64,000 nt of DNA, from NCBI GenBank assembly GCA_028715415.1, contig JAQURX010000002.1, positions 4,703 through 68,702 of the forward strand, written 5' to 3'. Position numbers and translations under genes: made by a program. Origin of the DNA: Candidatus Omnitrophota bacterium (GTDB lineage: Bacteria > Omnitrophota > Gorgyraeia > Gygaellales > Profunditerraquicolaceae). Shown in pieces: positions 2,606 to 18,078 of this stretch; the first letter of the stretch is position 1; each line of letters opens with the position of its first letter. Below the pieces are notes generated by a model, which saw only the letters and a program-made list of their open reading frames with translations, made no database searches and had not been told where the DNA came from.

Positions 2606-4759
2606 ATGTCCAAAACAATTTCAATATTCAGCACAAAAGGCGGCGTTGGGAAGACTTTTGTCTCAATGAATTTGGCTGTAAGCCTTGGGTACTATTCCAA
2701 GAAAAAAGTCGCCCTTATTGACCTTGATCTTCAAGCAGTAGGGGATATGTCGCGGCTACTTAATGTTCAAAGCCGCAAATCTTTATTGGACCTTGCCGAA
2801 AATATAAAGAAAAATCCCGAAGCTGTATCATTGAAGGATTATATGGTAAAAATTCCCAATTTCGGGGTTGATTTTTTACCGGCAGTCTTAAACCCGCGGC
2901 AGGCTGTGCATCTGGATAGCGATAGAATTAAATGCGTCCTTGATTATTTGGATAAGAATTATGATTTCATTCTTATTGATGCAGGGCGGGCTTTTACGGA
3001 AAGTTTGTTTTCTACTTTTAATTATACCAATTTAATCCTCTTAGTTGTAACTCCCGACGTAATTTCAGTTTATCAAACAAAATGGTCACTTGATTCTTTA
3101 CAGTCTTTGCATATCCCTCTTAATATGATAAAGATTGTTTTAAACCGCGCTGAGAGCGCAGGCAGCGTCAGTTGGCAGGAAGTGCGCGCCGCGATACCCG
3201 TTGAAATAATTGGGAGAATCCCTTCAGAGGGAAAAACTGTTGGCCTTGCATTAAACCGCGCAACCCCGGTTGTTATAGATTCTCCTCGTTCAAAAGTAGC
3301 CCTTGCCATAAGAAAACTTGAGAAAGACCTTATTGAAAAACCAAATCTTTTCCTTGAACGTCAAGAAATAGCAGTTGCCGCTGGAGAAGAAGTTGTATTG
3401 CCTAAGGAAGGTGAGTTTTGGCAGAGGTTTAATCTAGCGAAGGATGCGCTTGTTGAAACCGATACTCAAGAAGAAGATGAGATTATTGAGTTAAAGAAAC
3501 GAATCCATTCAAAATTAATTGAAAAACTGGATTTAAAACATATTGAAATTGACATGACTGATCCGGTTAAAGCGCGCCAGATAAGGGATAAAACCGAAGG
3601 GCATATCTCTACTGCTCTAGCAGAAGAGACCGGTGTATTTCTCTCATCATTTGAAATAAGAAAAAGATTAGTTAAAGAGATTGCTGATGAGGCTCTTGGT
3701 TTGGGGCCTTTGGAAGACCTCGCAAATGACCCGGACATATCAGATATTATGGTTAATAATAAAAACCAGATTTATATTGAACGAGGCGGGAAAATTAAAT
3801 TATCTCCCAAAAGATTCCTTTCAAATGAACAGGTGCGCCAGGTTATTGAGAGGATTATTGCTCCATTGGGCCGCAGGATCGATGAGTCAGTCCCAATGGT
3901 GGATGCGCGCCTTCCTGATGGCTCGCGCGTAAATGCAATTATTCCTCCGCTTGCTTTATCCGGCCCGACTCTTACGATTAGAAAATTTGGAAGAGAGCGT
4001 CTTACTATTGACGATTTGCTTCGTATAAATACTTTAACCGAACCAATGCGCGATTTTATTGCCGGCTGCGTTTTATCAAGAAAAAATATTATTGTTTCGG
4101 GAGGAACCGGTTCAGGAAAAACAACCGTTTTAAATGTGCTCTCTACGTTTATCCCGGAGAATGAGCGAATTATTACAATTGAAGATGCTGCCGAATTAAA
4201 ATTAAAACAGGAGCATTGCGTGCGCCTTGAGTCACGCCCACCTAATATTGAAGGAAAGGGAGCAATTACAATTCGCGATCTTTTCCGTAACTCTTTAAGA
4301 ATGCGGCCTGATAGAATCATTATCGGAGAATGCCGAGGGGCTGAATCATTGGATATGCTGCAGGCGATGAATACAGGCCACGATGGTTCATTAACTACAA
4401 TCCATGCAAATTCTACACAGGATGTTTTAGTCCGCCTTGACTCCATGATTTTAATGTCTGGTGTTGAGTTGCCTATCAGGGCGATTAGAGAAATGATTGC
4501 CTCCGCAATTGATATCGTAATTCACACTGCCCGTTTGTCCGACGGAACCCGGAAAGTTATACAGATTACGGAAATTACAGGCATGAAAGACGATATTCAT
4601 ATAGGTTTAGAAGATATCTTTGTCTTTAAGCAAACCGGCATTGATGCGCAGAATAATGTTGTCGGTCAATTTAAAGCCACTGGTTACATCCCTGCATTTA
4701 TTGAAGAACTTAAGATTAAAGGGATACCAATCCCCGCTGATATATTTAAATCATCTTAA
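2606..4759 (+). CDS. Fused CpaE/TadZ (ParA/MinD-like ATPase) and CpaF/TadA (T2SS-E family secretion ATPase) in one polypeptide
   Basis: 717 aa. The N-terminal half has a deviant Walker A (STKGGVGKTFVSMNLAVSLG) and a MinD/ParA-like layout. The C-terminal half has VSGGTGSGKTT Walker A, RPDRIIIGECRGAE and GHDGSLTTIHANS motifs typical of TadA/CpaF. Confidence 0.85.
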   Translation: MSKTISIFSTKGGVGKTFVSMNLAVSLGYYSKKKVALIDLDLQAVGDMSRLLNVQSRKSLLDLAENIKKNPEAVSLKDYMVKIPNFGVDFLPAVLNPRQAVHLDSDRIKCVLDYLDKNYDFILIDAGRAFTESLFSTFNYTNLILLVVTPDVISVYQTKWSLDSLQSLHIPLNMIKIVLNRAESAGSVSWQEVRAAIPVEIIGRIPSEGKTVGLALNRATPVVIDSPRSKVALAIRKLEKDLIEKPNLFLERQEIAVAAGEEVVLPKEGEFWQRFNLAKDALVETDTQEEDEIIELKKRIHSKLIEKLDLKHIEIDMTDPVKARQIRDKTEGHISTALAEETGVFLSSFEIRKRLVKEIADEALGLGPLEDLANDPDISDIMVNNKNQIYIERGGKIKLSPKRFLSNEQVRQVIERIIAPLGRRIDESVPMVDARLPDGSRVNAIIPPLALSGPTLTIRKFGRERLTIDDLLRINTLTEPMRDFIAGCVLSRKNIIVSGGTGSGKTTVLNVLSTFIPENERIITIEDAAELKLKQEHCVRLESRPPNIEGKGAITIRDLFRNSLRMRPDRIIIGECRGAESLDMLQAMNTGHDGSLTTIHANSTQDVLVRLDSMILMSGVELPIRAIREMIASAIDIVIHTARLSDGTRKVIQITEITGMKDDIHIGLEDIFVFKQTGIDAQNNVVGQFKATGYIPAFIEELKIKGIPIPADIFKSS

Positions 4760-5264: not shown

Positions 5265-7244
5265 ATGGGTGTAATTTATAAATTAAGGCCGGAAATTAAG
5301 GATTTTATTGTTGAGAAGAAGAAGATTAATCCAATTATTAGTTGTCGTGGCCTTACTGAGCTTATTGAATCTGAATTTAAAATTAAATTATCAAAGTCTA
5401 CTATTAATGCAATAATTAAAGATGCTGGCTTAAGTATGCCGATTGGAAGGAGGCTTAAGAAGCACAAGCATCATCCCAAGGAGCAGATTGTTGAATCAAA
5501 AGAACCGCCTCTAGAATCACCTTCAAAAGAGTTGGTTCCCGTCGAGAAAAAGCCGGAGCAAATAGCTCAGCCAATCAGTATTCCTAAAATTGAAGAACCT
5601 GTTGAAGAAATAAAACCGCCGCAAGAAGCCCCTGAAACACCAATAATTCTCCCAGAAGAAAAACCAATTGAAGAAAAGAAAGAGGAATTGCCAGAGGTTC
5701 AAATAGAAAAGCCAGAGGAGCCGGTTATTGTTGAAAAGCAAGAAGAACTGATTCCTCCTCCAGAGCCTATTTTGGCTAAAGAAGAATTAGCTCAACCTGT
5801 TGCTCCAGAAGAAGTTATTGAAAAAGAACCAGAAAAAGAAGAAATTAGTGAGCCTGTAGTAGAAAAAGTTGTCGAGCCTGCAATATTACCTGTTGCAAGA
5901 GAAGAAGTTAAGAAAAATGAATCTTATGAGGAATTAGTCTCAACTGGAGCGGTTCTTTTAAAAGCTGCTGATTTTATTATTGGTGGAAGCAGTATAATTT
6001 CTGATGCGATCAGGAGTAGAATTATGTCTCTTGATGCCGCTCTTTTAGCTAAGACTGAGAGTGCAATTTATTTGCCTCTATTCCAAGGAGTAGCTGGTGG
6101 GCAGGAAGATGATTTGGAGAAATTATGGTCTTTAGTTGGACGAAATGTCACTTTAGATGCAATTTTGACATATCTTGATGATTTGCAGAAGGTTAAGCCA
6201 GTTAATACTGATATAATCCGTATTATTGACACCTCGGCGCAGGAAGTGAGGTGTATTAAGCTAGATCTTTCTAACGGAAGTATCTTGTATTTGGATGGGC
6301 AGTTTCAAACAGTGTGGTCAACACCGCATATACCGCATAGTTTTAACCTAACTGTAAATAATGTAAAGGGTTACATCAATAATTATTTCTTTGAAGAAAA
6401 GCCGTTAATCCTCGGTATGGCCCCGGGTTATGATTCTCCAACTGATGAATTTTTTAATTTTGCTTTAAGTCTTGATTCAAGAGAAAGAAAAATACGTTCA
6501 CTTTCTCTGATTGCGGATAATCTTGAAGAAATTGAAGTAATCCCAGTTGAAACAGCCCGAAGAAGGTTTTTTATTTTTGGCTTATGGCCGTGGCAATTTA
6601 CTCAGAGCCGGAAAGTAAGTTTATCCGGGGAATTTAAACCGTATCAATCCAATGTTTGCAAAAAAGAGTTATTTATAGCTTCCCTCGGGATTATTTTATC
6701 GCAAGTATCTGGAGATAAATCACTTACATTAAGAGGCTATGCAATAAAAACAAATCTTAACGAGAAAACCAGGTTGGTAATTTTAAGTAATCTTCCCATA
6801 GATACTAGCCCGGATTTATTGATTGAGCCGTATCTTGGCCGTTGGCCGAACTTTGAAGAGGCTTTTAAGGATTTTAGCCGAAAAGTTGAATTATTTACTT
6901 ATACCGCGAATTCGCAGAAATATTTTTCCTCAGCTTCTGCAGATTTATTTACTGTGGCAAACATTGATATCAAAACGATTTTCAACCAGTATCTGAAACT
7001 TTTGGATATGTTCGTAAAATATCATTTTCTACCTCCCGGGTCTGAAGATACAGATTTCTCGTCGATGAAAGAGCAGTTTTATAGCCTTAAAACCACATTT
7101 AAGAAAGAAAAGGGCTGTGTTTTTATCAAATTTCTTACCCCCGAAGGATATGCTTCGCAAAAGCTGCTTTCTTACGCCTGCAACAGACTGAACGAAAGAG
7201 AGATTATTTTCTTTAACGGCCTGCGCGCCTGGTTTTCGCTTTAG
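5265..7244 (+). CDS. Protein with an N-terminal helix-turn-helix-like domain, a ~200-aa Pro/Glu/Val/Lys-rich linker and a ~430-aa C-terminal domain of unknown function
   Basis: The ORF track starts at a TTG at 5223. ATG at 5265 with GAGGTAGG upstream is the more likely start. The N-terminus (RGLTELIESEFKIKLSKSTINAIIKDAGL) looks like a transposase- or regulator-type HTH. The PEVK-like low-complexity region spans ~5480-5900. Confidence 0.6.
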   Translation: MGVIYKLRPEIKDFIVEKKKINPIISCRGLTELIESEFKIKLSKSTINAIIKDAGLSMPIGRRLKKHKHHPKEQIVESKEPPLESPSKELVPVEKKPEQIAQPISIPKIEEPVEEIKPPQEAPETPIILPEEKPIEEKKEELPEVQIEKPEEPVIVEKQEELIPPPEPILAKEELAQPVAPEEVIEKEPEKEEISEPVVEKVVEPAILPVAREEVKKNESYEELVSTGAVLLKAADFIIGGSSIISDAIRSRIMSLDAALLAKTESAIYLPLFQGVAGGQEDDLEKLWSLVGRNVTLDAILTYLDDLQKVKPVNTDIIRIIDTSAQEVRCIKLDLSNGSILYLDGQFQTVWSTPHIPHSFNLTVNNVKGYINNYFFEEKPLILGMAPGYDSPTDEFFNFALSLDSRERKIRSLSLIADNLEEIEVIPVETARRRFFIFGLWPWQFTQSRKVSLSGEFKPYQSNVCKKELFIASLGIILSQVSGDKSLTLRGYAIKTNLNEKTRLVILSNLPIDTSPDLLIEPYLGRWPNFEEAFKDFSRKVELFTYTANSQKYFSSASADLFTVANIDIKTIFNQYLKLLDMFVKYHFLPPGSEDTDFSSMKEQFYSLKTTFKKEKGCVFIKFLTPEGYASQKLLSYACNRLNEREIIFFNGLRAWFSL

Positions 7245-7274
7245 AAAACGCTTTCTTTATACTCCCAAATATCA

Positions 7275-7303
7275 TTGACACTGTATTATATTAATGTTAT
7301 ATT
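7275..7303 (+). promoter_or_regulatory. sigma70-type promoter TTGACA-N17-TATATT (extended -10 TGt) for the Flp pilin operon
   Basis: TTGACA at 7275-7280, a 17-nt spacer, then TATATT at 7298-7303 with TG at 7295-7296. It lies ~230 nt upstream of the first pilin gene. Confidence 0.55.
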
Positions 7304-7311
7304 TTGAATGC

Positions 7312-7445
7312 AATTGAAAGGCGGCAACGAAAAGGCAATTCCACTATGGAGGTAGTGGATGCGCAAAGCCACGGTGAGTATGCTCGCAAAATATTGTTTT
7401 TATATTTCTAGCTTTGGGTCAGAGCGAGAAACTTTTACCGGGTTA
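7312..7445 (+). promoter_or_regulatory. Candidate c-di-GMP-I (GEMM)-like riboswitch aptamer in the pilin operon leader
   Basis: GGCAATTCCACTATGGAGGTAGTGGATGCGCAAAGCCACGG ... GAGCGAGAAACTTTTACCGGGTTACCGAAAGCC shares the GGCAAAC/hairpin/GGACGCAAAGCC and CGGGGTTACCGA signature blocks of the Vc2 c-di-GMP aptamer. It also matches the second element at 16925. It has a longer insertion than typical. Confidence 0.4.
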
Positions 7446-7478
7446 CCGAAAGCCGTCAATGGCTTTCGGTTTTTTATT
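7446..7478 (+). terminator. Intrinsic terminator/attenuator hairpin plus U-tract (expression platform of the leader element)
   Basis: Stem CCGAAAGCC (7446-7454), loop GTCAAT, stem GGCTTTCGG (7461-7469), then TTTTTTATT. The 5' arm overlaps the aptamer 3' stem GGGTTACCGAAAG. Confidence 0.6.
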
Positions 7479-7534
7479 GGATAAATTAGTAAAGACTTTG
7501 TAAAATCAATTAATAAGTTAAAGGAGGTGAGAAA

Positions 7535-7723
7535 ATGTTAAGTTTAAGAGGGAAAAAAGCTCAGAGTACATTAGAGTATATCTTGGTTCTTACGGCTATT
7601 GTTGCAGCAATCGTGGTTGTTTCACAGGGGGTAATAAAAGAAAAGGTTATAAGTATGTTCGGCAATGTAGCTAATCAGGCTGATAAGGCAGTTTCAAAGA
7701 TTAATTTTGATAACGAAGAATAA
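7535..7723 (+). CDS. flp: Flp-family pilin (class III signal peptide, A-QSTLEY motif)
   Basis: 62 aa MLSLRGKKAQSTLEYILVLTAIVAAIVVVSQ. AGGAGGTGAG RBS. G/XXXXEY-type motif with Ala at -1. Confidence 0.75.
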   Translation: MLSLRGKKAQSTLEYILVLTAIVAAIVVVSQGVIKEKVISMFGNVANQADKAVSKINFDNEE

Positions 7724-7751
7724 ACAAAAATTTTTGAGGGAGGTGAAGAAA

Positions 7752-8108
7752 ATGTTGATCTATTTAAACAAAAAAGCGCAAAGCACAGCCGAGTATGTCA
7801 TTGTGTTGGGGTTGGTTGTAGGAGCTGTGGTTGCTATGCAAACATTTGTAAAAAGAGGCTTGCAAGGCAGAATCCATGACGCAGTAAAATATACCGGGGC
7901 TGCAGGCGATACAGATGCAAAAGCAATATTTAAAGGCAACCAGTATGACCCGAATTATGTTGAGAGCAATTTAACAAGATCAAGCTCTTCAGAAGAAAGT
8001 GAAAAAATTGCTACAGGCGGAGGAGAGATTACAAAAGAACTTACCAAGGAATCAAGCTCCACAACTGGTACGCAGACTATGGAAGCAGAAGATGGCAATA
8101 ACGATTAA
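7752..8108 (+). CDS. Flp-type pilin paralog with Ser/Thr/Glu-rich C-terminal tail
   Basis: MLIYLNKKAQSTAEYVIVLGLVVGAVVAM. RBS GAGGGAGGTGAAG before ATG 7752. The ORF track start at 7707 is an upstream in-frame extension. Confidence 0.7.
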   Translation: MLIYLNKKAQSTAEYVIVLGLVVGAVVAMQTFVKRGLQGRIHDAVKYTGAAGDTDAKAIFKGNQYDPNYVESNLTRSSSSEESEKIATGGGEITKELTKESSSTTGTQTMEAEDGNND

Positions 8109-8177
8109 AAGTATGTACTTAACCCCCAATTTTATCGGATAAATTGGGGCGGGCTTGTGCCCAGGGAGGTGGAATAA

Positions 8178-8495
8178 ATGTTGAGATATCACTTAAGAAA
8201 AAAAGGCCAGTCAACTCTGGAATACGCGATTCTTATCGGAGTTATTGTTGCCGGGCTTATCGCGATGCAGACGTATATCAAGAGAGGCTATGAGGGAAAA
8301 TTAAGAGAGAGTGCTGATACTATGGGTAAGCAGTATAATCCCGAGGACACAACTTATAATTATACTACTTCAACCTCTTCTTTAAGTACTGAGGTTGTTT
8401 CTGATTCTAAAACAACAACAACAATTCAGAATCAGACATCGAATAGGACTGGAAACGAAACAGTTGGCGGCGTTACAAACGAAACATTGTTTTAA
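8178..8495 (+). CDS. Flp-type pilin paralog with Thr/Ser-rich C-terminal tail
   Basis: MLRYHLRKKGQSTLEYAILIGVIVAGLIAM. G-QSTLEY fits G/XXXXEY exactly. RBS GGGAGGTGG. Confidence 0.7.
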   Translation: MLRYHLRKKGQSTLEYAILIGVIVAGLIAMQTYIKRGYEGKLRESADTMGKQYNPEDTTYNYTTSTSSLSTEVVSDSKTTTTIQNQTSNRTGNETVGGVTNETLF

Positions 8496-8528
8496 GCAGG
8501 TTAATTAAATTTAAGAGGGGAGAAGCCC

Positions 8529-9380
8529 ATGTTTGTAAAAGCTTTGATATTTTTGGTCGTCTTTGGGGTGATATTCTTTCTTGTCACTTCTGCGTACCCC
8601 GCGTTTGAGATTTTAATGAAACGTTGGCGCAGAAAAAGAATGGATAATATTACCCCAAAGCTGGACCATATGTTTCTGGATATTACATTGCAGAAGCTGA
8701 TGTTTCTGGATGTGTTAGTACCTGTAATATTCGGGATTATAGCAGTTACAGTTTCCAGAAACATTTGGATAGTTTTAGGGGCAATCGTGTTGGGTTTAAT
8801 CATCCCTATCTTCGTGATTAAAAAGTTAGAGTCAATACGCCGGAATAAATTTGCGGGACAAATAGTAGATGTATTGATGATTCTTTCCAGCTGCCTTAAA
8901 GCAGGTTTGAGCATGACGCAGGCTCTGGAAGTTGTGGTTGAAGAAATGCCTTCTCCTGCTAACCAAGAATTTGGCTTAGTAACCCGCCAGATGCAAATGG
9001 GTGTATCTTTGGAGGATGCAATGAACAGCTTGCGCCGGCGTATGAAGGTAAGTGATCTGGATATGGTAGTAACAGCGATGATGGTTGCGAGGGAGAGCGG
9101 AGGAGACCTTACAGAAACATTCTCCCGCCTTGTCTTTACGATTCAGGAACGCAATAAATTAATCAGCCGCGTTAAAGCTTTGTGCGTTCAGGGAAAGTTG
9201 CAGGGTGCGATTATGTCGTTATTACCGATCTTTTTTGCGCTTTTTGTTTATAAGGTTAACCCGCATTTTTTTGATATCTTTTTTGAGGATAACTTTGGAA
9301 GGATGCTTTTTGCATACGCGATAATTTCAGAAATAATGGGGATAATCTTTATCCGCAAATTAAGCAAAGTGGATATTTAG
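8529..9380 (+). CDS. tadB: TadB-like inner-membrane platform protein (T2SS-F domain)
   Basis: 283 aa, multi-TM, with a GspF-like cytoplasmic domain (LKAGLSMTQALEVVVEEMPSP...GVSLEDAMNSL). RBS AGAGGGGAG. Confidence 0.8.
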   Translation: MFVKALIFLVVFGVIFFLVTSAYPAFEILMKRWRRKRMDNITPKLDHMFLDITLQKLMFLDVLVPVIFGIIAVTVSRNIWIVLGAIVLGLIIPIFVIKKLESIRRNKFAGQIVDVLMILSSCLKAGLSMTQALEVVVEEMPSPANQEFGLVTRQMQMGVSLEDAMNSLRRRMKVSDLDMVVTAMMVARESGGDLTETFSRLVFTIQERNKLISRVKALCVQGKLQGAIMSLLPIFFALFVYKVNPHFFDIFFEDNFGRMLFAYAIISEIMGIIFIRKLSKVDI

Positions 9381-9393
9381 GAGAATATATATT

Positions 9394-10287
9394 ATGTTAA
9401 TAATAATAGGGTTGCTTTTAAGTTTAGCGATATATTTAGTGCTCTACCAGATTGGGGTTGCTGCTTCTGAAAAGGCGCATCTTCCGCAGGAAGTTTTTTC
9501 CAATGATGTAGAGCAATCACTTTTGCGTTCTAGTGCTAGCATTGAAACACAGAATACCGCCTGGCTTTCTATTACTAAGCGGTTTAGGGCTCTCGAGAAG
9601 CGTATAAAAGCTACTGGCTTAAGAAGAAAGATAATCAAAGCAGGTTCTCCTATGGGTGTTTTGGAATTCATTTTCTTAAAGATACTTTGTATGACAGCAG
9701 TTCCTTTGATTGCCTTTATTTTATTAGGAAATAAATTTCCGCAGCATTTGGTATTTATTATATCGTTGGGTGTTGGCTTTATTCTTCCGGAATTTTGGTT
9801 GCAAAGGCAGATTAAGATCCGCCAGAACAATATCAGAAAGGACCTGCCCAATATTATCGACCTTTTAAATTTGTGCGTTAGCGGCGGTATGGATTTTATG
9901 CTTGCAGTTAACCGTGTTGTAAAAGAATTACCCAAGTGCGACTTAACGCAGGAATTAAGTGAAGTATACCGCCAGACCCAGATGGGTAAAAGCAGGAAAG
10001 AGGCTTTAAAAGAAATGGCTTGGCGTATAGATATGGCAGAGGTTTATTCATTCGTCAGAACTCTTGTGCAGGCAGATAGGATGGGTTCTCCGATGGCAGA
10101 GGCATTAAAACTTCAGTCAGAAGAGGTCAGGACAAGAAGATTCCATAGAGGAGAGGCAATGGCTTTAAAGGCACCTATAAAACTGCTCTTTCCTCTTTTT
10201 GCATTTATTTTACCGGTTGTTTTGATTATTGTAGGCGGCCCGATTATTTTAAATTTTGTGCGTAACAATGTCAGTATGGGGTTTTAA
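9394..10287 (+). CDS. tadC: TadC-like inner-membrane platform protein (T2SS-F domain)
   Basis: 297 aa. CVSGGMDFMLAVNRVVKELP...YRQTQMGKSRKEALKEMAWR is typical of the GspF/TadC domain. TM segments flank it. Confidence 0.8.
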   Translation: MLIIIGLLLSLAIYLVLYQIGVAASEKAHLPQEVFSNDVEQSLLRSSASIETQNTAWLSITKRFRALEKRIKATGLRRKIIKAGSPMGVLEFIFLKILCMTAVPLIAFILLGNKFPQHLVFIISLGVGFILPEFWLQRQIKIRQNNIRKDLPNIIDLLNLCVSGGMDFMLAVNRVVKELPKCDLTQELSEVYRQTQMGKSRKEALKEMAWRIDMAEVYSFVRTLVQADRMGSPMAEALKLQSEEVRTRRFHRGEAMALKAPIKLLFPLFAFILPVVLIIVGGPIILNFVRNNVSMGF

Positions 10288-16887: not shown

Positions 16888-16924
16888 TTTGATGCTCTTG
16901 GAAATAAGATTGTTTATCTGAAAA

Positions 16925-17005
16925 AGGTAAACTCCGAGTAATCGGAGGACACAAAGCCACGGGTCCTCACGCGAGAAAGAATTGTAGGATAGCCGGGTTG
17001 CCGAA
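16925..17005 (+). promoter_or_regulatory. c-di-GMP-I (GEMM) riboswitch aptamer
   Basis: GGTAAACTCCGAGTAATCGGAGGACACAAAGCCACGGGTCCT...GTAGGATAGCCGGGTTGCCGAA aligns block-for-block with the Vc2 aptamer (GGCAAACC-hairpin-GGGACGCAAAGCC ... GGTAGGTAGCGGGGTTACCGA). Confidence 0.6.
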
Positions 17006-17038
17006 TAAAAAAATTATTTGACAATCCGGCTTTTTTTT
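16991..17038 (+). terminator. Intrinsic terminator acting as the riboswitch expression platform
   Basis: AGCCGG (16991-16996) pairs with CCGGCT (17025-17030) and is followed by TTTTTTTT (17031-17038). The 5' arm is shared with the aptamer P3 stem, so the two structures are mutually exclusive. Confidence 0.6.
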
Positions 17039-17079: not shown

Positions 17080-18078
17080 ATGAAAAACTTACTATCAAAC
17101 AGATTAATAAAAATAATCATAATTTTAATTATGGTTATTTTTTCTTTTAACCAGGTCGCCTTTGCAGCTCGTCATGCAGCTGGCGGAGGCGATATGGCGA
17201 AATTTAATGCCGGCAAATTCGCAGTAGGAACCGGTATTGGTTTAGCTTCTTTTACTGTTGGTAGTGCTTTAGCTGGCGGGATTTCATCTGGTATGCAAGG
17301 TGGCAGTTTTTCCGCAGGTATTGCTGCAACAAAACCATTAGCCTTTTCCACATGGGCAACAAATTATAGTGTAATGACTACAACCGGCCAATTAGGCAGG
17401 GCTGTTGGTAATATGGGCAATTATTATGGGTGGAATCCAAAAGCCACCTTAGCAATCAGCTCTGCTTTGCAGGGCGTTGTTGGCGGAGGGATGAATCCTG
17501 CAGCTTACGGAACCTCAAGCGTTTTAAATGGCATGGCATTAGGTGGGATCAATGGTAGTGTGCAGGGCGCTGTTTTGGCAGCAACAGCAAATAAAAGAGG
17601 TGTTGTACAGCCTTGGGCTGGAGCTGTAGCAGGAATAGCAGGTGGTTTTGCCAGTGGATTTGTTTCCGGAGCGCTTACGCCTACCAATGGAAACTTTTCT
17701 TTCGGAAATAAATTTAATGCGGGGGCTGGATTTAAAGCCGCGGCTACTTCTACAATTCAAAGCCTTCCTTCTCAAGCAATTAGCGTGGGTGTTGGTTACA
17801 TTGCTCAGAATTCAAAAAATCCACAAGATAGATATATGATTCAACAGGCATTTAGCGGTGTTTATCCTATGGTAAATGCGGTAACTAATCCAGTTTCTGT
17901 AACAAACGTGAGGCAGCTTGGCCCCGGCTTTATTAACGTAAGGGCAACACCAAGCGCATACAATTATTCTCAATTCCAGCATGCTAATCCTGTTGGTTCA
18001 GGGTTGCCATCGAATCAGACTCTTAATTATAATTCAAATTCAGGGATTAATAATTTCCCAACAGCTGGTAGTAGATAA
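17080..18078 (+). CDS. Secreted Gly/Ala-rich protein of unknown function
   Basis: 332 aa, signal peptide IKIIIILIMVIFSFNQVAFA, then Gly/Ala/Ser-rich low complexity. Its stop TAA overlaps the ATG of the giant ORF (TAATG). Confidence 0.65.
   Translation: MKNLLSNRLIKIIIILIMVIFSFNQVAFAARHAAGGGDMAKFNAGKFAVGTGIGLASFTVGSALAGGISSGMQGGSFSAGIAATKPLAFSTWATNYSVMTTTGQLGRAVGNMGNYYGWNPKATLAISSALQGVVGGGMNPAAYGTSSVLNGMALGGINGSVQGAVLAATANKRGVVQPWAGAVAGIAGGFASGFVSGALTPTNGNFSFGNKFNAGAGFKAAATSTIQSLPSQAISVGVGYIAQNSKNPQDRYMIQQAFSGVYPMVNAVTNPVSVTNVRQLGPGFINVRATPSAYNYSQFQHANPVGSGLPSNQTLNYNSNSGINNFPTAGSR

Follow-up and report, generated by a model that had tools for sequence, protein, structure and literature searches.

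The pilin-operon 5' leader at 7310-7534 of a 64,000-nucleotide (nt) window of the Candidatus Omnitrophota contig JAQURX010000002.1 (assembly GCA_028715415.1; all positions count from the first letter of this window) contains, with a probability that we put at about 85%, a c-di-GMP-I (GEMM-I) family riboswitch of the transcriptional ON type, for which cyclic dimeric guanosine monophosphate (c-di-GMP) is the ligand suggested by conserved contact bases. The initial annotation had proposed for this region a sigma-70-type promoter, a leader with blocks of the aptamer and an intrinsic terminator, and each of these features was recovered where it had been placed. The promoter shows 11 of 12 consensus matches plus the TG of an extended -10 and is the only strong site in a promoter scan of 6800-8200; transcription is predicted to start near 7310, giving a leader of ~225 nt up to the ATG at 7535. 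The leader contains GGCAA (7334-7338), a hairpin, GGATGCGCAAAGCCACGG (7357-7374), GCGAGAAAC (7424-7432) and ACCGGGTTACCGAAAGCC (7437-7454), and its terminator stem is formed by ACCGAAAGCC (7445-7454) with GGCTTTCGGT (7461-7470), followed by T6, with a folding energy of -16.6 kcal/mol when folded alone. The basic layout is as follows:

7275-7303, + strand: sigma-70-type promoter (TTGACA 7275-7280, 17-nt spacer, extended -10 TG 7295-7296, TATATT 7298-7303)
7445-7475, + strand: intrinsic terminator (5' arm 7445-7454, loop 7455-7460, 3' arm 7461-7470, U tract 7470-7475)
7520-7529, + strand: ribosome-binding site AAAGGAGGTG of the pilin gene, 5' of the ATG at 7535
7535-7723, + strand: first regulated gene, encoding a 62-amino-acid (aa) Flp-like/class III signal peptide pilin (MLSLRGKKAQSTLEY...), ATG at 7535

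That the window element truly belongs to the family is argued above all by orthologous loci that were gathered by their proteins, namely TadB (8529-9380) and the 118-aa protein encoded at 7752-8108, and not by the RNA. The genome search with TadB returned 18 loci, the closest of which (L001, 76% identity) has a match of 40.5 bits to the Rfam c-di-GMP-I model RF01051, whose gathering score of 35 bits is an operational threshold and not a structural feature. This match is located at an equal distance upstream, within a leader that is 84% identical to that of the window from the promoter through the terminator. Among the loci encoding homologs of the 118-aa protein, all those with enough upstream DNA except L023 have a match to the c-di-GMP-I clan, 125-135 nt long, some 100 nt upstream of the first pilin gene. 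Their scores are 45.1 bits in L024, 41.4 in L028-L031, 40.5 in L001 and L020, 38.6 in L022 and 33-36 bits in L026, L033 and L034. Eight distinct orthologous leaders share the promoter, the core blocks GCAAAGCC and GGGTTACCG and the terminator, with the TTGACA-N17-TGTTATATT promoter at an equal distance from the aptamer in all of them. The initial annotation had named a covariance-model search and the conservation of such blocks in homologous leaders among the checks on its proposal. Both came out in its favor: the RF01051 match exists, if sub-threshold in the window, four distinct orthologous leaders score 38.6-45.1 bits at the same position, and the two blocks are kept in eight of eight.

Tad loci at 57% TadB identity or less are without a leader riboswitch at the pilin position, and several of them carry a compact GEMM-I element elsewhere in the locus. 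The more distant pilin cluster of L023 (1242-1345) presents the TTGACA-N17-TGTTATATT promoter with a leader of ~60 nt that has neither aptamer nor terminator; since it keeps the promoter without the aptamer, the riboswitch was gained or lost within the pilin gene family.

In a permissive scan of 7200-7560 (361 nt), RF01051 aligns over its full length to 7324-7450 with 29.9 bits (E = 4e-4), and c-di-GMP-I is the best member of the clan at this position. RF03167 (c-di-GMP-I-GGC, cut-off 59 bits) gives no gathering match at 7324-7450, and RF01786 (c-di-GMP-II) returns nothing at E up to 10 in 7200-7560. Taken alone, the sub-threshold RF01051 match of the window copy is suggestive. Together, the end-to-end alignment of the model and the conservation in orthologous loci argue that the arrangement of promoter, aptamer and terminator is more than chance.

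A metagenome scan with the pattern GCGCAAAGCCACGG-N50-80-ACCGAAAGCC produced 81 loci, which with the ortholog loci amount to 80 distinct aptamers; invariance of the two pattern blocks is uninformative in the metagenome set because they are fixed by the retrieval pattern, and it is the leaders gathered by their proteins that demonstrate the conservation of these blocks. An open reading frame (ORF) of 55-75 aa with a [K/R]..[G/A]Q[S/A]xxEY N-terminus follows 66 of 78 elements under the strict motif, and inspection revealed the same pilin motif behind a mis-called start in six further ones. The subtype to which the element belongs is a recurrent one: at least 80 distinct examples are known, nearly all directly 5' of a small Flp-like pilin gene. 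In about 15 of the 80 relatives (L036, L037, L040, L064, L067, L071, L073-L075, L078, L094, L099 and L113 are such cases) the CGGCAACGAAAA 5' strand is replaced by a stable 5' hairpin, e.g. CUCGCCAA...UUGGCGAG, abutting GGCAA.

A covariance model built from 79 long-P3 sequences with the window copy left out (R1) matches 7315-7455 over its full length with 130.3 bits (E ~8e-38). The same model scores a second element of the window, at 16906-17010, with only 41.4 bits because the P3 expansion is absent there. The likeness to this second element noted in the initial annotation therefore stands at the level of the family and not of the subtype: the second element is a compact form that has a GNRA loop and lacks the P3 expansion (41 vs 130 bits). 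In a sample of 20 metagenomic relatives, 15 reach the RF01051 cut-off, four fall below it and one has no match, i.e. the Rfam cut-off misses about a quarter of the long-P3 subtype. The suspicion that the element is a divergent variant longer than the canonical form also proved right, its excess being a conserved P3 expansion of ~40 nt (63 nt vs 27 expected by RF01051) with a large cap loop that holds a conserved GCUUNAGGGUC stretch. The parts of the aptamer are:

7322-7455, + strand: c-di-GMP-I (GEMM-I) aptamer, long-P3 subtype (RF01051 and R1 matches)
7322-7325/7452-7455 plus 7328-7329/7447-7448, + strand: P1, with an AA/AAA internal loop between the two parts
ending at G7334 (= G20), + strand: J1/2 AAAAG
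7335-7364, + strand: P2 (G7335-C7364, C7336-G7363, internal loop, 7340-7346/7353-7359)
7347-7352, + strand: P2 loop UGGAGG, where a GNRA tetraloop usually sits
7367-7444, + strand: expanded P3 (base 7367-7370/7441-7444, bulged A7371, 7372-7374/7438-7440)
7376-7378/7432-7434, + strand: P3a
7383-7387/7424-7428, + strand: P3b (CUCGC/GCGAG)
7388-7423, + strand: P3 loop of ~36 nt, A-rich then U-rich, with the conserved GCUUUGGGUC (7411-7420) as its 3' part
7312-7320, + strand: tentative antiterminator extension AAUUGAAAG, pairing with CUUUCGGUU (7463-7471, in the terminator 3' arm) in the P1-enforced fold

Across the 80 sequences, the three-helix junction of P1, P2 and P3 is supported by covariation in P2, P3a and P3b. 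The six inner P2 pairs are 98.7% paired with 5-34 double (compensatory) changes each and furnish the top five mutual-information pairs; the P3a pair 81-164 is CG in 72 sequences and UA in five, and P3b is 93% paired, with its innermost pair being CG in 54, UA in 10 and UG in 10. The structure as a whole is 95.4% paired vs 21.5-34.3% with the partners slid, and none of 500 shuffles reaches the observed value in this control, which ignores relatedness. The two loops are also strongly conserved: of 79 sequences, 66 have GGAGG in the P2 loop and 73 have GGGUC in the P3 loop.

Several further pairings were considered and set aside. For a P3c hairpin within the P3 expansion, the folding energy of the interior (mean -1.4 kcal/mol) is not better than that of shuffled sequences (median z +0.31). 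A P3d helix (CGCUU/AAGCG) competing with P3b is 80% paired vs 93% for P3b, and changes of GCGAG to ACGAG are accompanied by CUCGC to CUCGU (e.g. in L038 and L102), so that P3b is kept while GCUU is unchanged and P3d is broken. For a pseudoknot of the GGAGG loop with the pyrimidine run or the CUU of the P3 loop, the flanking base is unconstrained. The mutual-information scan returned only P2 and P3a pairs and no long-range covariation. GGAGG and GGGUC occur together in 63 sequences, one without the other in 10 and 3, and neither in 3, an association that is weak and confounded by shared ancestry. A 41-aa ORF at 7359-7484 was likewise rejected as coding, there being a 5-nt indel within it in an ortholog.

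In the Vc2 aptamer, the two guanines of the ligand are recognized by G20, which reads the Hoogsteen edge of one, and by C92, which forms a pair with the second; A47 is a further contact (PMC6140456, PMC4744006). By model alignment and column counts, all three predicted contacts are present in the window copy as G7334, A7365 and C7446, respectively. Position 20 is G in 76 of the 80 relatives; A47 and C92 are invariant in the 80 sequences, though both lie within the search pattern. An adenine at position 20 is needed for recognition of 3'3'-cyclic GMP-AMP (cGAMP) by the GEMM-Ib type (PMC6140456), and with G7334 the window copy lacks this hallmark; c-di-GMP is favored over cGAMP because of the G at the position where cGAMP needs A20. 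Among the long-P3 relatives, L040, L065 and L085 have A and L090 has C at this position, and these four may have an altered or relaxed ligand specificity.

The overlap of the terminator 5' arm with the aptamer, which had also been pointed out in the initial annotation, turns out to be extensive: 7445-7454 comprises A91, C92 and the entire P1 3' strand. As the terminator 5' arm holds the whole of this strand, a ligand-stabilized P1 and the terminator are mutually exclusive, which would make the element an ON switch. The expression platform thus excludes the aptamer helix P1, and equivalent overlaps are seen in relatives. In the absence of ligand, 7445-7454 would pair with 7461-7470 to form the intrinsic terminator, and transcription would stop near 7475. 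With c-di-GMP bound, C7446 would pair with one guanine of the ligand and P1 (7322-7329 with 7447-7455) would be held shut, making the terminator 5' arm unavailable; RNA polymerase would then go on to transcribe the Flp-like pilin gene at 7535 and, probably, the pilin and tadB/tadC genes that follow. Both this shift of fold on ligand binding and the extent of the operon are inferred. The minimum-free-energy fold of 7310-7480 has P2, P3 and the terminator but no P1 (-55.0 kcal/mol), and in the fold with the aptamer forced and P1 closed (-46.4 kcal/mol) the terminator cannot form.

In some relatives the P1 3' strand serves as the terminator 5' arm, in others the 3' strand of P3 (CCGGGUUACC with GGUAACCCGG); with two strand choices in use, it is the logic of competition that is conserved and not the sequence. 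The pairing of AAUUGAAAG with the terminator 3' arm is possible in close orthologs, with one compensatory change in L026. A class-wide test of pairing between the 5' flank and the terminator 3' arm gave no signal (median z +0.36), with a flank window that was inconsistent and missed 7312-7320 in the window copy.

Several observations weigh against the proposed riboswitch. The window copy lies under the RF01051 cut-off (29.9 vs 35 bits), and the whole-window Rfam gathering scan gave no match at the leader, reporting only 16917-17006; the low score arises from the peripheral departures of the copy plus its long P3 insertion. It has no GNRA tetraloop and no receptor (CUAAG/UAUG), though the docking of a GNRA loop into a P3 receptor is reportedly, from the work of Weinberg in 2007 and Sudarsan in 2008, a property of type 1 only, with type 2 members lacking it. 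The interhelical Watson-Crick pair C44-G83 has been described as universally conserved (PMC4744006); the equivalent of C44 is present as C7362, but the aligned G83 position is A7437. P3a is off consensus (UGAG...CUUUUA vs GACG...CGUUAG). P1 is conserved with almost no covariation, and its 3' strand is fixed by the metagenome search pattern. In the nearest-neighbor model, closing P1 costs 8.6 kcal/mol relative to the fold with the terminator, so that any switching would have to draw on ligand energy and on co-transcriptional kinetics. Finally, searches of the 64-kb window, which covered the first 15,308 aa of a giant ORF at its 3' end, revealed no diguanylate cyclase.

Some of these points could be taken to mean that the element is a decayed relic which no longer responds to a ligand, the leader then being a fixed attenuator or a terminator under the control of a protein: the copy stays under the Rfam cut-off, G83 is replaced and P3a departs from the consensus. 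However, every helix is intact, as are the contact bases (all three), promoter and terminator, and pairing in P3a is preserved by an A-U for C-G exchange. Of the 80 relatives, 64 have G at the G83 position, 14 have A and two have U, and as the change to A recurs in several otherwise intact and well-conserved lineages, we read it as tolerated rather than as decay. We accordingly regard a relic as very improbable. That the GEMM-I fold is retained here with another ligand, such as 3'3'-cGAMP, pGpG or another dinucleotide, with the GGAGG loop, the expanded P3 and the lost G83 having retuned its specificity, is also unlikely. While the peripheral architecture is unlike that of Vc2, and the A or C at position 20 in L040, L065, L085 and L090 recalls the cGAMP recognition conferred by A20 (PMC6140456), the window copy keeps G20, A47 and C92, as do 76 of the 80 relatives. 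Moreover, known changes of specificity in the family map to the contact bases and not to the periphery (PMC6140456).

A different role might be sought in the terminated leader of ~165 nt, which could act in trans or bind the ribosome or a protein via its exposed GGAGG loop, either besides or instead of cis control. Such a role would account for the near-invariance of GGAGG in the P2 loop (66/79) and for its having no intramolecular partner by covariation, and the loop motif (7347-7352) is identical to the core of the pilin ribosome-binding site at 7523-7527, ~175 nt downstream. Nevertheless, there is neither a target nor a complementary CCUCC in the leader, the proposal is entirely inferential, and a tertiary-contact role is simpler because the GGAGG loop sits where the tetraloop docks in canonical GEMM-I; we give the trans-acting or ribosome-binding role very little chance of being correct. 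A cis-acting c-di-GMP-I ON riboswitch hence remains our preferred interpretation of the leader.

The leader is surrounded by a Tad-like pilus locus, with three small pilin-like genes, two T2SSF (TadB/C) genes and a TadE/G-like gene on its 3' side. The genes of this locus identified by domain searches, and those of the presumed operon, include:

49-924: RcpC/CpaB gene
941-2602: secretin gene
2606-4759: TadZ-TadA fusion, a single 717-aa protein
7752-8108 (118-aa protein) and 8178-8495, + strand: pilin-like genes of the presumed operon
8529-9380 and 9394-10287, + strand: TadB/TadC-like genes of the presumed operon, with T2SSF domains

The secretin has a TonB_C domain at its C-terminal end, and in the fusion protein an N-terminal ParA/MinD-like (TadZ-type) domain is joined to the pilus ATPase. 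The short intergenic gaps suggest that the genes at 7752-10287 are co-transcribed with the first pilin gene. The product of the latter (7535-7723) matches the class III signal peptide model PF04021 weakly (E = 0.006, 16.9 bits, with a cut-off of 23.7), and no curated family for the pilins was found in an NCBIfam search. It is assigned as a Flp-like pilin from its length, its N-terminus (KKAQSTLEY plus a hydrophobic stretch) and the Tad genes around it. Relatives of the TadB come almost entirely from Omnitrophota metagenome-assembled genomes, and the 118-aa protein has an identical counterpart in a metagenome-assembled genome at NCBI. A separate case is L004 (JAIWAR010000014.1), binned as a Methanosarcinales archaeon: its tadB is Omnitrophota-like (45% identity), and it also carries a c-di-GMP-I riboswitch of 42.1 bits; this contig is probably mis-binned. 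A cultured member of the Omnitrophota has been reported to attack Methanosaeta (PMC10066038).

Further downstream lies the second riboswitch with its own set of genes:

16917-17006 (element to 17038), + strand: compact GEMM-I aptamer (67.7 bits vs RF03167, c-di-GMP-I-GGC, cut-off 59)
16991-17000/17022-17031, then U8, + strand: terminator of this element, its 5' arm being the P3 3' strand
17080-18078, + strand: gene for a 332-aa Gly/Ala-rich membrane protein, 3' of the element
18078-64000, + strand: giant ORF, open to the window end (>15,308 aa)

This element has a GUAA loop on P2, and an A at position 47 although the GGC model matches best. The stop codon of the 332-aa gene overlaps the ATG of the giant ORF, the visible part of which has the Pfam domains Peptidase_C39, Peptidase_M50, Hydrolase_2 (cell wall hydrolase), Peptidase_M15, glutaredoxin and GH2, with no GGDEF domain in these 15,308 aa. 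In distant Omnitrophota Tad loci, compact GEMM-I elements are seen 2-4 kb downstream of tadB (L005:6310-6419, L011:6136-6242 and L014:8123-8233), that of L005 directly before an ORF homologous to the N-terminus of the giant protein (VAFIVVAIFLPEQ...DWRVLWNKP). Omnitrophota giant genes have been described with a pilus/secretion set and many small class III signal peptide genes 5' and PilZ homologs 3', and many of the giant proteins contain GGDEF domains (10.1101/2023.11.21.568195). With the elements at 7315 and 16917, both the pilin operon and the giant gene are predicted to be under c-di-GMP control.

Comparison of the two switches of the window shows that they share the family, the core blocks, the locus and an ON logic in which the terminator uses an aptamer strand. 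However, in the element at 16917-17006 the P2 loop is of the GNRA type (GUAA) and P3 is short, the competition of the terminator is with the 3' strand of P3 and not with P1, and the predicted targets are the 332-aa gene and the giant gene, not pilins. With the Vc2-type aptamers of RF01051 (type 1) the leader element has in common the P1/P2/P3 junction, J1/2 AAAAG-GC, the GCAAAGCC...GGGUUACC core, G20, A47, C92, the bulged A in P3 and the use of P1 as the switching helix. It departs from them in its UGGAGG P2 loop, the missing 11-nt receptor, the ~40 extra nt of P3 (P3b and the GCUUNAGGGUC loop), the A at the G83 position and the sub-threshold Rfam score. The 3'3'-cGAMP riboswitches of Geobacter (GEMM-Ib) have the same fold and belong to the same family, but possess A20 where the window copy has G7334.

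The closest functional precedent for the predicted regulation is provided by Clostridioides difficile, where c-di-GMP turns on type IV pilin transcription via a riboswitch-controlled terminator (PMC6366702). In Cdi-2-4, upstream of the major pilin gene pilA1, c-di-GMP prevents the intrinsic terminator of the leader and so permits read-through to pilus genes (PMC6366702), with a function and logic equal to those predicted for the Omnitrophota leader. The aptamer of Cdi-2-4 is, however, unrelated (c-di-GMP-II), and the pilus is of type IVa in a monoderm as against the Tad/Flp-like one in the diderm Omnitrophota. The riboswitch family, the mechanism and the type of target gene are already known, and the window holds a divergent member that scores below the threshold; the novelty lies in the phylum, in the dedicated long-P3/GGAGG-loop subtype and in the presence of a second switch ahead of the giant gene. 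The Omnitrophota studies that we compared mention neither riboswitches nor any control of these genes.

For RNA biology the gain is the smaller one, since the aptamer is well known and what recurs here is a variant of its periphery, with conserved GGAGG and GCUUNAGGGUC loops. The simplest idea is that these loops form a replacement tertiary contact, while the Shine-Dalgarno-like loop may have a role in binding the ribosome or a protein. More broadly, and tentatively, the long-P3/GGAGG form might be a pilin-dedicated Omnitrophota subtype in which docking of the GGAGG loop with the GCUUNAGGGUC loop replaces the tetraloop-receptor contact (and in about one-fifth of the copies also C44-G83), or which brings in a second input, such as binding of the 30S subunit or a protein. 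Together with the GEMM-I element of the giant gene and the PilZ and GGDEF elements described for such loci, it would then constitute a c-di-GMP regulon deploying the pilus and the giant protein of a proposed predatory apparatus; we consider this wider scenario possible rather than probable.

Members of the Omnitrophota are ultra-small, uncultured bacteria that probably live as predators or parasites, and the Tad-like pilus locus and the adjacent giant gene are the main candidates for their attack machinery. The presence of two predicted c-di-GMP ON switches in one such locus leads to the hypothesis that a rise in c-di-GMP triggers deployment, which would fit the PilZ genes and GGDEF domains noted at giant-gene loci (10.1101/2023.11.21.568195).

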